This document shows, piece by piece, positions 19,030 to 57,613 of a DNA stretch of 64,000 nt. How positions within the stretch are numbered: the first letter of the stretch is position 1; the number at the start of each line of letters is the position of its first letter. The translations under genes and the position numbers were made by a program. The notes beneath the pieces are model-generated. The model was not told the DNA's origin, searched no databases, and worked only from the letters and a program-made list of their open reading frames with translations. This DNA comes from an uncultured Chlamydiae bacterium. Its GTDB lineage: Bacteria > Chlamydiota > Chlamydiia > Chlamydiales > JAJFMA01. The DNA is taken from the NCBI GenBank assembly GCA_963713615.1, contig CAVQMM010000001.1:608001-672000 (forward strand). Direction: 5' to 3'.

Positions 19030-19113
19030 GATGAATCCGTTTTAATGAAGGTTTTTGTGGGTGTGGTGTGTGTTTCTTGAGTCAAAGGACCAAAAGGACA
19101 TAAAAGACCTAAA

Positions 19114-19867
19114 GAGGTAATTGCAGAAGTCCGGTTTCCGAAGTCAATTTCCTGAAACTCGACGGCCGGCGAAGAGAGATAAGCGATTCCCTTCCCAGGC
19201 CCGAAGGGTCGATATTGCAACAGGCCAGGGCATCGCCCCATAGGCATCAACCTAAGCCTAACAATCGTATCTCGGCGCGCAGCGCTTTGGAGTGCGGTCG
19301 CTTGCGACCGCTTTGGGTTCCTTGCGACGGTCGTGTGCAACGGCATCACTATAATTCCCTAAGGGTAAAATAGTTAGTACATGCAGCCTTCGACGAATCC
19401 ATACAATGCCGTTTAGCATTGCCGTCCCAAGGAACGAAAAGCGGTCGCAAGCGACCGCACTCCAAAGCGCTGCGCGCCGAGATACGATTGTGAAGTCCTA
19501 AGTCATTGAGATATAAGCTCAAAAGACCTGTTAGGTTGAGGCCTATGGGGCATCGCCCTGGTATATTCCAGGAAGGGATTTCGCAGTCTGAAAGACTGCC
19601 ATAAGGCGCTTGCATAAATAGCGTGTGAATACAGACGTCTTGTGGCAGTCTTTCAGACTGCGAAATCCCCCTTGGTATATACCAGGGCGATGCCCCGGCC
19701 TGTTGCAATATCGACCCTTCAGGCCTAGAAAGGGATAAAAGCCTGTCTCTCCAGACTAGATAGTGCCATGCCATTTGAGCTCTCCAGAATCGCCTTCTCG
19801 CATAAAAAGGTAACCTTTTTTTCTGAGAATCGATTCTCAAGGGCTCAAATAATTTTGCATTTACCTC
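19114..19867 (+). mobile_element. GAGG-MITE copy A (754 bp) carrying nested CATAGG element
   Basis: TIRs GAGGTAATTGCA...TGCATTTACCTC; TAAA duplicated on both flanks. Confidence 0.9.
19239..19547 (+). mobile_element. Nested CATAGG-ended element (309 bp), IS4/IS231-like MITE
   Basis: 17-bp TIR (1 mismatch here); flanked by direct repeat GGGCATCGCCC at 19228-19238 and 19548-19558. Confidence 0.85.
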
Positions 19868-19954
19868 TAAAGGACTTGTAGGAATTTTGTTTTCTAAGTC
19901 CTTTTCGTCGCTTTGGTCCTTTAATCCATCCATCGAGCTCCGTCTTACAAGCTT

Positions 19955-21256
19955 TTAGCTCATAAAAGTAAATTTTAAGACAAACAGCCCTGCCAATATC
20001 CAGAGGAGCCAATGCACCTCACGCCACTGTCCACGTATAATTTTGAGTAGTGGCCAAGTAATCAATCCCATTGCAATGCCCGTGGAGATACTGAAGGTAA
20101 GGGGGATGGTAATTAAGACGAGGAAACTTGGAATGAGGTCTGTGGGATCTTCCCAGGAGAGTTCCTTGAGGGCAGAGAGCATCTGCGCGCCAATAATGAT
20201 GAATGCTGGCGCAGTGGCGAAGAAGGGAATTGAGCCTGCTAGCGGTGCGAAGAATAGCGAGACAAAGAAGAGTAGAGCCACTACAACAGCTGTCAAACCT
20301 GTGCGTCCCCCTGAGGATACTCCAGCAGCCGATTCCATATATGTCGTTACCATAGAGGTACCAGTCGTCGCACCGATCACCGTGCCTAAGGCATCAGTGA
20401 CAAAGAGGCGTCGAATCCTAGGCATAGACCCATTTTTATTGAAAAAGTGTCCTTGTTGTCCTAAACCTGTAATGGTACCTGCCGCATCGAAGATAGCGAT
20501 AAAGCTGAAGGCTAGAACAGTCCCAAACATGTCGGGGTGAAGAGCTCGCCAGATGTCTAGCTTAAGAAATGTGGGTGACATGGTGGGAGGTAGGGCGACA
20601 ATGCCTTGCCATTCAGTGATGCCTAGCACAATACCGACTGCCCAGATAACGAGAATGCTGATGAGAATGCCCCCACTGATTCCCCAGGCCATCAAGGCGG
20701 TAGCTAGAACCAATCCAGCGGCGGCTAAGAGTATTTCGGGAGAACCTAGATTGCCGACAGTGACAAGAGTTTCGGGATGCGGCACCACAAGCTTGAGCTG
20801 GCTCAAACCGATAAAGGCGATAAACAGGCCAATCCCTGCTGTAAGAGCCGCACGAAGGCTGATAGGAATAGCTATCAGGATGAGTTCACGGATCCCGACG
20901 AAGTTTAAAATCAAAAAGATAACCCCTGCAAGGAAGCAGGCACCCAGCACGGCTTCCCAAGGTAGGCCCATATCGAGCACTAGGGTGTAAGTAAAAAAAG
21001 CGTTTAACCCCATACCAGGAGCTAGGGCAAAGGGGTAGTTGGCAAATAGACCCATCAGCAATGTCGAAAACCCTGCTGTCAGAATCGTCGCCACCATCAC
21101 AGCTCCAAAGTCCATCCCAGCTTCTTTAAGAATCAAAGGATTGACCAAGATGATGTAGGCCATAGTGGAGAAGGTTGTTAAACCCGCAAGCACCTCGGTA
21201 CGTATATCAGTGCGATGAGTATTCAGATGAAAGACGCGATCTAAAAGCTGCGACAT
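19955..21256 (-). CDS. NCS2/AzgA-family purine permease
   Basis: GLTTFSTMAYI, LAPGMGLNAFF, ESAAGVSSGGRTGLTA; start at 21256 or 21277. Confidence 0.9.
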   Translation of the reverse strand: MSQLLDRVFHLNTHRTDIRTEVLAGLTTFSTMAYIILVNPLILKEAGMDFGAVMVATILTAGFSTLLMGLFANYPFALAPGMGLNAFFTYTLVLDMGLPWEAVLGACFLAGVIFLILNFVGIRELILIAIPISLRAALTAGIGLFIAFIGLSQLKLVVPHPETLVTVGNLGSPEILLAAAGLVLATALMAWGISGGILISILVIWAVGIVLGITEWQGIVALPPTMSPTFLKLDIWRALHPDMFGTVLAFSFIAIFDAAGTITGLGQQGHFFNKNGSMPRIRRLFVTDALGTVIGATTGTSMVTTYMESAAGVSSGGRTGLTAVVVALLFFVSLFFAPLAGSIPFFATAPAFIIIGAQMLSALKELSWEDPTDLIPSFLVLITIPLTFSISTGIAMGLITWPLLKIIRGQWREVHWLLWILAGLFVLKFTFMS

Positions 21257-21308
21257 GGTATACCCTAATCGGTCCAAATTCCAAATTTATGACCCAGTGG
21301 GGTAAACA

Positions 21309-21815
21309 TCAGTCTTCGAATGTGGCTGTTAAGTGAAATGGTTTGTGGTAGCCGCATACCCGTGCCAGAAGGTCCCTGACTTCGCCTTCGATTTCCTCTA
21401 CTAAACTTCTCTGTTTATCAGAAGGTACTGGCGGCAGACGTAGCCCGATATGGAGCCTGTGATCATCACGCAGTTCAGCACGCGATCTCACGTGAACACC
21501 AGGCATGCGTTCTTTTAAATAGACTTGCAGGTATTTATCTATGACTTTTTCATCGATGGAGACACTAACGCTACCAGCTTTGATGTAGTAGCGGCGCCTA
21601 CGCGAGGCTTTAAGAAGATAGCCCACAAGCCAGCATCCTACCGCCACGAAGATGACCCCAAAGATAAAAAGGGTGATACGTCCTTCTAAAAGCACATGAG
21701 CGATTAAATCGCGGACACTACTAGACCATGGCACTAAAATAGCCAAACACCCCAAGAACACAAAAAATAGGGCTAATACGAAGAGGGCAAGCTGCCTAAG
21801 GATGTCAGTAAACAA
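21309..21815 (-). CDS. Membrane protein, AmaP-like membrane anchor
   Basis: Two N-terminal TM helices plus soluble domain; directly downstream of Asp23-family gene. Confidence 0.6.
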   Translation of the reverse strand: MFTDILRQLALFVLALFFVFLGCLAILVPWSSSVRDLIAHVLLEGRITLFIFGVIFVAVGCWLVGYLLKASRRRRYYIKAGSVSVSIDEKVIDKYLQVYLKERMPGVHVRSRAELRDDHRLHIGLRLPPVPSDKQRSLVEEIEGEVRDLLARVCGYHKPFHLTATFED

Positions 21816-56056: not shown

Positions 56057-56220
56057 GGGCCCTCGAGGGTTTGGTGCCTGTAGAGCTCACTGTATGCCAC
56101 ATGGCGTGCTGTTACAACCGTTTTTTCGAAAATTTTTCACTAGACACTTTTTAACTTTAACTTTAATCGGACGATGGCTAACGTCGGAGAAATAAATCAA
56201 GTCTTTTAAAAGGGGACACG

Positions 56221-56466
56221 ATGAAAGCGGATGTGCATAGTTCGGTGCGAAAAACTTTGGCTAAAAAGCATGCGGGCTATGTGCTTATTACTTGCGATAA
56301 GCCATCAGCTGATGGCTTTATGCAGATCAAAATGTCTTATGATGGAGACGCTGTTCTAGCCTCCTATCTCTTACAAGGAGCTCAAGAATACCTAGATGAA
56401 GATTGCCAAGAAAGTTGTGTCACGCAGCTTCAGGCAAACGACGGACAGAGTGTTGTTCTTAACTAG
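56221..56466 (+). CDS. Hypothetical small protein
   Basis: 81-aa ORF with AAGGGG RBS. Confidence 0.6.
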   Translation: MKADVHSSVRKTLAKKHAGYVLITCDKPSADGFMQIKMSYDGDAVLASYLLQGAQEYLDEDCQESCVTQLQANDGQSVVLN

Positions 56467-56653
56467 AGCTTTTCGTAGCATAACCCAAACGTCAAAAAAC
56501 ATGATATAATGGGATACGCCTGATATGCATGATAAAGGAATCTATCAGCTTTATGTCAAAGAATGGAGTTAAGAAATGGGTCCCCCTGTTTATGTAAGAT
56601 TGGAAGTACCTGGTGCAGAAATGTGCGTTTATAGTGCTCCATATCGTCCATAT

Positions 56654-57405
56654 GAGGTAATTGCAGAAGTCCGATTCTCCGAAGTCAATTTCCTGAAAAT
56701 CGGATGCCGGTGAAGAGAGAGTCATTCCCTTCCCAGGCCCGAAGGGTCGATATTGCAACAGGCCAGGGCATCGCCATGGTATATGCCAAAACGGTTTTAG
56801 CAGCCTGTAGGGCTGCCATAAAGTGCATGCATAAATGGTGTTTGTAAACTGGCGTCTTGTAGCAGTCCTTCAGACTGCGAAATCCCTTCCTGGCATATAC
56901 CATGGCGATGCCACATAGGCCTCAACCTAAGCCTAACAATCGTATCTCGGCGCGCAGCGCTTTGGAGTGCGGTCGCTTGCGACCGCTTTGGGTTCCTTGC
57001 GACGGTCGTGTGCAACGGCATCACTATAATTCCCTAAGGGTAAAATAGTTAGTACATGCAGCCTTCGACGAATCCATACAATGCCGTTTAGCATTGCCGT
57101 CCCAAGGAACGAAAAGCGGTCGCAAGCGACCGCACTCCAAAGCGCTGCGCGCCGAGATACGATTGTGAAGTCCTAAGTCATTGAGATATAAGCTCAAAAG
57201 ACCTGTTAGGTTGAGGCCTATGTGGCGATGCCATGGCCTGTTGCAATATCGACCCTTCGGGCCTGGGAAGGGAGAAAAGCCTGTCTTTCCAGACTGGATA
57301 GTGCCATACCACTTAAGCTCTCTAGAATCGCCTTCTCACAAAAAAAGGTAACCTTTTTTCCCGAGAATCGATTCTCAAGGGCTCAAATAATTTTGCAATT
57401 ACCTC
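56654..57405 (+). mobile_element. GAGG-MITE copy F (752 bp) with CATAGG element at right hairpin
   Basis: ATAT TSD; nested element 56914-57222 flanked by TGGCGATGCCA; 432+309+11=752. Confidence 0.92.
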
Positions 57406-57613
57406 ATATGGACAGTAATGGACATCATGGACGCTATGGACGAATCCCAAAAACAAAAATCCCCTTATCCACTTTCTCCGATCTTGGCGTCCCCGCGTTC
57501 TCCGCGATAAAAAATCCTAAATTCTATTTTTCTCTGGGATCGTTGTAGCAATTTGTCATGCGATTCGGTATGAGTGAGAACAAGTCAAAAAATACCTTTG
57601 CACGGTAGGCGCC

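Follow-up and report, generated by a model that had tools for sequence, protein, structure and literature searches.

The stretch of DNA analyzed here (the window, 64,000 nucleotides in full; G000:C1:608001-672000) comes from the genome of an uncultured Chlamydiae bacterium, the assembly of which comprises 3.97 Mb in 3 contigs and is 99.1% complete. [quoted passage not shown] All six copies are intergenic, lying between annotated-type genes, and none matches an Rfam family, the sole match in the window at the gathering score being one tRNA. A preliminary description of the window had listed elements of 754, 432, 432, 717, 752 and 752 bp and had pointed out that their lengths add up as 432+309+11=752; positions, lengths and arithmetic proved exact (Table 1).

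The terminal inverted repeat (TIR) of the GAGG element has 15 matches in the window at up to one mismatch, compared with 0.02 expected from shuffled sequences. The basic element of 432 bp is built around a hairpin doublet of 228 bp (the first hairpin), to which the left end contributes about 72 bp and the right end about 132 bp, and as single-stranded DNA it folds at -139 kcal/mol (z -20, copy 28275..28706). The copies of 752 and 754 bp contain in addition a 309-bp CATAGG element together with a perfect duplication of 11 bp, and in the 717-bp copy a 275-bp CATAGG variant takes the place of the 309-bp element. Each CATAGG element of the window encloses in turn a doublet of 231 bp with perfect 54-bp arms (the second hairpin). 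Exact duplications of 4 bp flank four of the six copies (TAAA, ATAT, TTTT and ATAT) and are absent at the copies starting at 42363 (CTTT/TTTA) and 48695 (ATGA/ATAT).

Inverted arms of a further repeat, ACCACAGAG, surround in the window the copy at 28275 only (28190-28885, locus B) and are of the same type as the arms around a GxxExxY gene at C1:1855069. A comparison with relatives shows locus B in its empty state: in the genomes G001 and G002 the symporter and pfkB genes adjoin without the nest, and in G003, which belongs to the same genus as the source genome, other DNA lies between them. The last codons and the stop of the symporter reading frame (26840-28228, Na:alanine) are contributed by the left arm of locus B and replace the C-terminus found in the relatives.

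Table 1. Nested elements and related repeats of the window (TSD, target site duplication)
Position	Strand	Feature	Parts and neighbouring repeats
13919..13969	-	Isolated right end of a GAGG MITE	Adjoins a GTCC unit
19085..19113		9-bp GGAC array, left of MITE	Hairpin resumes at 19868-19922
19114..19867		GAGG MITE, IS1182-like ends, 754 bp, TSD TAAA	Within one arm of a 9-bp GGAC array; hairpin doublet 19188-19735; CATAGG MITE 19239-19547, TSD GGGCATCGCCC; 54-bp-arm doublet 19261-19491
23103..23362		54-bp-type doublet with different spacer	Next to it one GAGG TIR (23348-23362), then a 9-mer hairpin
28190..28885		Whole nest of locus B	ACCACAGAG-type inverted arms around GTCC/GGAC hairpin and MITE
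28275..28706		Basic GAGG MITE, 432 bp, TSD ATAT	Hairpin doublet 28347-28574
28707..28810		9-bp GTCC...GGAC hairpin	Back-to-back polarity
30576..30663		9-bp GGAC...GTCC hairpin, left of MITE	
30664..31095		Basic GAGG MITE, 432 bp, TSD TTTT	Hairpin doublet 30736-30963
42363..43079		GAGG MITE, 717 bp, no TSD	9-mer hairpin 42302-42362 to the left; hairpin doublet 42435-42947; 275-bp CATAGG MITE 42486-42760, TSD TGGCATCGCCA; 54-bp-arm doublet 42508-42738
44210..44324		Hairpin of a third family, found also around the Y1 gene at C1:3872945	Next to it one GAGG TIR (44310-44324), then a 9-mer array
48695..49446	-	GAGG MITE, 752 bp, no TSD	Hairpin doublet 48827-49374; CATAGG MITE 49015-49323; 54-bp-arm doublet 49037-49267
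56654..57405		GAGG MITE, 752 bp, TSD ATAT	Hairpin doublet 56726-57273; CATAGG MITE 56914-57222; 54-bp-arm doublet 56936-57166; 9-mer array 57406-57445; single GxxExxY-type arm near 57483

The feature at 23103..23362 is a remnant of a minor GAGG subfamily of 307 bp. A further hairpin family (CGCAGTCAT...ATGACTGCG) adjoins degenerate GAGG-type ends at two places, 24700-25070 and 37991-38060.

The GAGG element and its target

Many copies throughout the genome had been anticipated, and the source genome indeed holds 240 exact GAGG TIRs (120 on each strand) and 305 at up to one mismatch, which form 111 paired elements and leave 83 unpaired ends. Paired elements of 429-434 bp (32 copies), 749-756 bp (27) and 3047-3058 bp (6) stand out, and all paired elements together amount to 92.9 kb, or 2.3% of the genome. 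Among 60 related genomes the exact TIR is found in six, with at most 30 copies in any of them; short MITEs with this TIR are spread over many phyla.

At five metagenome loci (L146, L171, L177, L196 and L203) the same TIR adjoins a reading frame of about 377 aa. The frame of L146, the one scanned, shows the domains DUF772 and DDE_Tnp_1, both above the Pfam cut-off, and the nearest annotated relatives of this type of protein (35-39%) belong to the IS1182 family/ISUnCu17 (plasmid) and have similar ends. Locus L203 lies within a GGAC array and L146 has perfectly inverted flanks. Judged by its TIRs, its target site duplications (TSDs), the absence of a transposase of its own and the ends it shares with these autonomous insertion sequences (IS), the GAGG element is a MITE.

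We searched for the parent of this MITE nearer at hand. DUF772 was found neither in the source genome nor in five other MITE-bearing genomes, and tblastn with the IS1182-like transposase gave no hit in the source genome, where the GAGG copies of 2.5-3.3 kb contain a passenger IS and no cognate transposase gene. No transposase frame, as judged by eye, lies beside 120 GAGG TIR matches in contigs of other genomes; in viral contigs the TIR matches are chance-like and tblastn on these loci gave no hit. A transposase gene between the TIRs, for which the preliminary description had advised a search, is missing from the assembly of the source genome, and relatives with matching ends occur in other sequences.

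The flanks of the GAGG ends reveal a target. The motif GWC is present at positions -8 to -6 of 236 of the 305 ends, compared with a background of 2.5%; in 105 of these ends it is repeated 9 bp farther from the element (background 4.1%). Unique flanks, of which there are 217 among the 305, resemble each other solely in this GWC register. With the 4-bp TSD the target reads GWC-N6-GWC, a sequence offered at every unit of the 9-bp GGAC array: pairs of GGAC/GTCC are spaced by 9 bp 540 times, compared with 39-127 times at neighbouring spacings. The gene-less 9-bp doublets of this genome are the main target of the GAGG MITE. In 14 loci chosen by chlamydial record titles GWC is found at 7 of 11 paired ends.

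Direct repeats of 4 bp flank 43 of the 111 paired elements (shuffled mean 6.3, maximum 15). They depend on the polarity of the flanks, being present at 29 of 39 copies with flanks of the same polarity; where the polarity is opposite they occur at 5 of 40 copies, each time as a palindromic 4-mer, and 15 of the opposite-polarity copies are members of tandem arrays. The GAGG transposase would read two GWC half-sites 6 bp apart, and the opposite-polarity copies without TSD may have come from replacement of the loop, as with IS1272, or from recombination between copies in the two arms, which could also yield tandem arrays. Only 1 of the 43 TSD sites lies in an open frame, compared with 48% of 600 sampled GWC-N6-GWC sites.

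GAGG MITEs also stand in tandem, 5 to 9 to an array, at C1:476526-478848, 1173286-1175193, 2273505-2280484 (L386) and 2600817-2603057. Three of them have one common 43-bp spacer (the centre of a GGAC hairpin) and exchanged flanks, and the fourth has a 22-bp spacer. Two of the three with the common spacer adjoin what we take to be 5S-rRNA-like sequence. Since the MITE recurs together with its flanks (about 41-46 and 123-161 bp) at three loci, namely window 48649-49570, C1:309695 and C1:3645703, a larger unit has moved or was converted here; the recurring flanks hold pieces of two further repeat families. Other GAGG elements have unusual contents: at C1:1137410-1138825 and L036/L144 a GAGG element contains a presumed group-II-intron-like fragment, at L036 a frame that we take to be reverse-transcriptase-like is also located just inside a GAGG TIR, and the one at C1:2059426-2061943 has a 398-aa frame, presumably IS110-like.

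ACCACAGAG arms of the GxxExxY type surround multi-unit 9-bp arrays in 9 of 120 cases (control, 2 of 179 sites) and GAGG elements in 6 of 111, and 100 of the 111 elements have no such arm. Seven enclosed arrays are free of a MITE; they differ in sequence and, when inspected by eye, have the polarity GTCC-then-GGAC without an evident TSD. No TSD was found for this outer link.

The CATAGG element

The CATAGG TIR has 206 exact matches in the source genome. Of 300 other genomes from the phylum, 4 contain it, none of them more than twice. We find 93 paired copies, of which 60 measure 309 bp. No fewer than 83 of the 93 sit in the first hairpin, 73 of them with an 11-bp direct repeat and 58 inside paired GAGG elements. 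Five copies belong to a second type with an apparent 10-bp direct repeat, which is inserted into the 54-bp repeat that this type also carries, and five sit in neither location. The direct repeats in the first hairpin comprise five alleles (strand ignored), found in both arms and both orientations. Because each of these alleles is duplicated on both sides of the element, CATAGG must have been inserted repeatedly. The 60 copies of 309 bp, in contrast, represent 12 sequences, 59 copies lying within 2 substitutions of the majority; since they are nearly identical, with the inner doublet in one position and with one spacer, the doublet was probably captured once and then amplified.

Members of the IS4 family have CAT ends and produce TSDs of 10-11 bp, and the CATAGG MITE fits both traits. 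In G003 IS4 transposases are found behind CATACGCATCA ends; the proteins of L409 and L414 score above the cut-off of NF033592 (IS4), and their ends are 1-3 bases off the TIR of the MITE. From its TIRs, its 11-bp TSDs and the lack of a transposase of its own we class the CATAGG element as a MITE, probably of IS4 type. The two DDE-type systems and the REP-like (repetitive extragenic palindromic) hairpins of the preliminary description are thereby supported, with IS1182-like and IS4 types as the probable parents of the two MITEs. The IS4 proteins of G003 gave no hit in the source genome, whose long CATAGG copies contain passenger IS alone. Viral contigs contained no strict-pattern match to a CATAGG parent and 20 loose matches, none with a transposase, and blastn against plasmids returned chance hits only. 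At window position 14538-14553 there is a CATACGCATCAACCTA end, an IS4 end variant of G003, of which the source genome has 11.

IS66 and IS1634 in the second hairpin

The 54-bp repeat carries a further layer, missing from the preliminary description. In the GAGG elements of about 3055 bp the 752 bp are enlarged by an IS66 of 2295 bp, which lies at the centre of the 54-bp repeat, and by a duplication of 8 bp. This centre is the site of 17 of the 18 genomic IS66 copies, in both orientations and both arms; 13 lie within CATAGG elements, and the other 4 occupy free repeats, where the TSD alleles are different. The copies are 99.6-100% identical and possess the TnpA, TnpB and TnpC genes, the GTAA ends and the 8-bp TSD of IS66. 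Similarly, all 13 ends of an IS1634 (transposase score 290, cut-off 100) abut the TTGGAG of the 54-bp repeat. The 355 arms of this repeat make up about 0.5% of the genome.

Repeat families and neighbouring genes

In the source genome each repeat family also brackets a small gene. The first hairpin brackets the gene of a 150-aa Y1 protein whose motif, Y---Q--HH, is that of subclass 1.2, a subclass entered without REP in Table 1 of PMC6006769. This gene scores as IS200-type (57.6, cut-off 55) and not as REP_Tyr (22.4, cut-off 80). Among its homologues the first hairpin accompanies 11 of 12 at 52-63% and none of 12 at 38-45%, several of which have other hairpins. The 54-bp repeat flanks the gene of a REP-associated tyrosine transposase (RAYT; NF047646 score 83.9, cut-off 80), and its motif is present at 15 of 19 RAYT homologues, one of these being a second copy in the source genome. 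Both hairpins had been called REP-like, and for the 54-bp family a flanking RAYT gene is indeed found, whereas the first hairpin works like a REPIN but its flanking gene, of subclass 1.2, is not a class-2 RAYT.

The 9-bp arrays flank two TIGR04258 (four-helix-bundle-suffix) genes of the source genome. At 20 TIGR04258 loci of other genomes we find 16 with exact 9-bp GGAC/GTCC pairs, two degenerate, one with a 10-bp period and one with none; genome G065 is unscored in this survey and in that of the IS1182-like relatives across the phylum. No relatives of the four-helix-bundle proteins were found in viral contigs. The ACCACAGAG arms bracket a gene of the GxxExxY family, TIGR04256.

A large part of the hairpins resides in MITEs: 194 of 287 heads of the first hairpin lie in paired GAGG elements and 26 far from any MITE end, and 174 of 355 arms of the 54-bp repeat lie in CATAGG elements, the 54-bp family further comprising 43 free doublets of varied spacer and 121 free arms. 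Because minor GAGG subfamilies of this genome, and GAGG MITEs in other genomes, hold other hairpins, the capture of hairpins recurs over evolution.

Further small genes stand in similar settings. A second subclass-1.2 Y1 gene, at C1:3872945 (L002), has the third hairpin family (22 matches in the genome) on both sides, and a second GxxExxY gene, at C1:1921694 (L385), is flanked by another repeat (CACGGAT words) in long tandem arrays. Two longer Y1 genes at C1:1465781 and 1580931 (L004, L005) have GGGGTCAG inverted ends, as given for TIRYT/subclass 2.1 (PMC6006769). Among the other genes of the window, 57614-61565 encodes a methyl-accepting chemotaxis protein, unexpected if the host is a chlamydia, and 43109-44023 an OTU-like cysteine protease domain (E 3e-6), possibly of a secreted deubiquitinase.

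Origin of the nests

The nests are likely to be stacks of mobile elements without genes, built by turns through insertion at a target and passive carriage, the landing sites being multiplied layer by layer. Of the links, three show repeated targeting and two look like cargo, while the remaining one is an association of no assigned type. The layers, their TSDs, the position-exact targets and the gene families flanked by repeats can all be read off the assembly, from which both MITE transposases are absent. An IS1182-like MITE would insert at a fixed spot in the 9-bp GGAC/GTCC arrays and carry the first hairpin doublet; an IS4-type MITE would insert at a fixed spot in this hairpin and carry the 54-bp doublet; and intact IS66 and IS1634 would enter the latter, again at fixed spots. 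Each MITE, copied by a transposase likely since lost, would have multiplied the landing sites of the next element, one parasite thereby likely providing its successor with additional harmless sites. Each hairpin would have entered its MITE once, and the Y1, four-helix-bundle-suffix and GxxExxY proteins may have generated their free repeats.

Several observations weigh against this reading, which rests on sequence comparison throughout. With neither MITE transposase in the source genome, the IS1182-like cognate is linked to its MITE by exact likeness of the TIR, and the IS4 cognate by TIRs that deviate at a single base (L414, which has this end on one side only) or at three bases (L409). The L146 protein reaches 85.9 bits against the NCBIfam model of IS1182, its top hit among six weak ones, with a cut-off of 270, and we therefore speak of IS1182-like. 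When ends with a partner TIR are counted in unrelated hosts, 1 of 50 and 0 of 55 have GWC. Autonomous relatives of the transposase are found in 25 of 400 genomes from the phylum; their TIRs are variants, and GWC is present at 1 of the 33 ends listed. The GWC specificity is therefore a trait of a sub-lineage, whose enzyme is in hand at most once (L203). The 56 of 111 GAGG elements with neither direct repeat nor inverted flanks indicate heavy rearrangement, so some placements may be due to gene conversion, and the avoidance of genes by GAGG insertions could come from selection alone. Among the GAGG copies of the source genome we found no empty element of the main family, which leaves insertion of the hairpin next to its capture by two IS ends. 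Finally, the roles of the Y1, four-helix-bundle-suffix and GxxExxY proteins are suggested by the association of gene and repeat.

A more far-reaching version, possible but doubtful, sees a self-reinforcing food chain of selfish DNA: MITEs would be selected for carrying the targets of others, the IS1182-like lineage would have evolved its GWC-N6-GWC preference for the arrays of the four-helix-bundle-suffix proteins, and these proteins, the GxxExxY proteins and the subclass-1.2 Y1 proteins would be three unrecognised repeat-spreading enzymes at its base.

The preliminary description had proposed a strict chain of six steps, in which every layer inserts into the layer outside it. The nesting order is constant in most copies and three links are position-exact with TSDs, namely those of GAGG to the 9-mer arrays, CATAGG to the first hairpin and IS66/IS1634 to the second; GxxExxY arms surround GTCC/GGAC hairpins of differing sequence more often than control sites (9/120 and 2/179), and minor GAGG subfamilies carry other hairpins. 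The claim fails at the links of hairpin in MITE, each of which is a single configuration (one position, one spacer) in near-identical copies, and at the outermost link, which lacks a TSD and is missing from 100 of 111 elements. The order, too, is in places circular or reversed: the second CATAGG type both carries and enters the 54-bp repeat, and at locus L011 of a relative a CACAGAG-type inverted repeat lies within a GAGG MITE. We thus consider such a strict chain improbable.

Still less probable is an origin without true targeting, by random insertion, selection against insertions in genes, and recombination or gene conversion. About half of the GAGG elements lack a TSD, the three tandem arrays with a common spacer have exchanged their flanks, and palindromic arms permit inversions that alter arm and orientation. 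Against this origin stand insertion positions exact to the base, private single-nucleotide alleles duplicated on both sides of CATAGG copies, IS66 copies in free repeats that have other TSD alleles, and 217 unique GAGG flanks having just the GWC register in common.

We regard it as very unlikely that the MITEs were moved by resident enzymes instead of lost cognates, that is by Y1 proteins acting on the internal hairpins or by the DDE transposases of IS1634 or of an element we take to be ISAs1-like. The cognates are absent from a nearly complete assembly and yet the copies are nearly identical, and the genome does hold intact Y1 genes with the cargo hairpins at their flanks; the element ends, however, are TIRs of DDE type with TSDs of 4 and 11 bp, unlike those of the resident IS, whose ends are unrelated. 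That the variants are chimeras of the long-read assembly, a concern raised at the outset, can practically be dismissed: array copies differ mainly in homopolymer length and no contig of other runs covers a whole window locus (unique flanks have about 2-3x coverage with holes), but the joint MITE-spacer-MITE recurs in contigs of all 4 independent runs checked (3 studies, depth 10.6-15.4; one run may be the source sample), repeat-to-IS66 joints in runs X1, X3, X4 and X5 and repeat-to-IS1634 joints in X1, and the element lengths sum exactly with the TSDs. The strict hierarchy, random insertion and chimeras were accordingly rejected.

Comparison with known systems

In the literature searched, in which subscription journals were thinly covered and supplements excluded, we found no account of this nest or its families, of repeats flanking GxxExxY or four-helix-bundle genes, or of IS66 or IS1634 targeting REPs; the available text of PMC3733652 and PMC4853749 does not describe these families. 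The principle that IS target REPs is old, which limits the interest of that part, and hairpin-targeting IS1182 members and MITEs with absent parents have been published as well (PMC1525189; PMC5678879; PMC4923244; PMC3184786). What one near-complete genome adds is that five anonymous repeat families are tied to candidate enzymes, so that it becomes testable whether subclass-1.2 Y1 proteins possess repeats of their own, what function the four-helix-bundle-suffix and GxxExxY proteins have and how IS66 and IS1634 can acquire site specificity. The case further illustrates that about 93 kb (2.3%) of such elements can be accommodated with hardly a gene disrupted and that unrelated transposons can supply the machinery by which REP-like repeats spread, and a transposase with a short defined target and a TSD would make a simple tool.

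The closest likeness is with IS that target REPs, such as ISRm22 (IS4), ISPpu9/10 and ISPa11 (IS110) and ISPsy8 and IS1397 (IS3), which insert position-exactly at the axis or stem of a repeated palindrome, show hybrid TSDs after recombination and include one IS4 member (PMC1525189). Here, in contrast, the inserter of IS4 type is a MITE whose target rides in another MITE, and IS66 and IS1634, of which the main text of PMC1525189 makes no mention, target a second repeat.

With the IS1182 family, IS1272/TnSha1 and ISUnCu17 the system shares a DUF772 and DDE transposase and GAG...TTGCA ends, and IS1272 likewise enters inverted repeats, where the loop is lost and no TSD arises (PMC5678879; PMC4923244). 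Whereas the targets of IS1272 are described there as having no primary consensus, the GAGG targets show a clear GWC-N6-GWC register, and insertions into a single arm have ordinary 4-bp TSDs.

Dispersed inverted doublets with variable spacers, found also around a low-copy Y1 gene, are typical of REPIN/RAYT and TnpA-Y1 systems, and the gene of the 54-bp family resembles subclass 2.8 in passing NF047646 and in its NHYH and WH motifs and proline-rich N-terminus (PMC6006769). Different are the subclass-1.2 gene flanked by the first hairpin and the spread of most copies as cargo of MITEs.

Like the bacterial MITEs Correia, RUP and Nezha, the elements described here have TIRs and TSDs, lack a transposase, fold strongly and are intergenic, and in such MITEs, too, the cognate IS is sometimes found only in another species (PMC3184786). 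They differ in that the interior is the repeat of another family, that five to seven layers are stacked and that tandem arrays reach nine copies. The parts resemble known families, and the nest is unusually complete.

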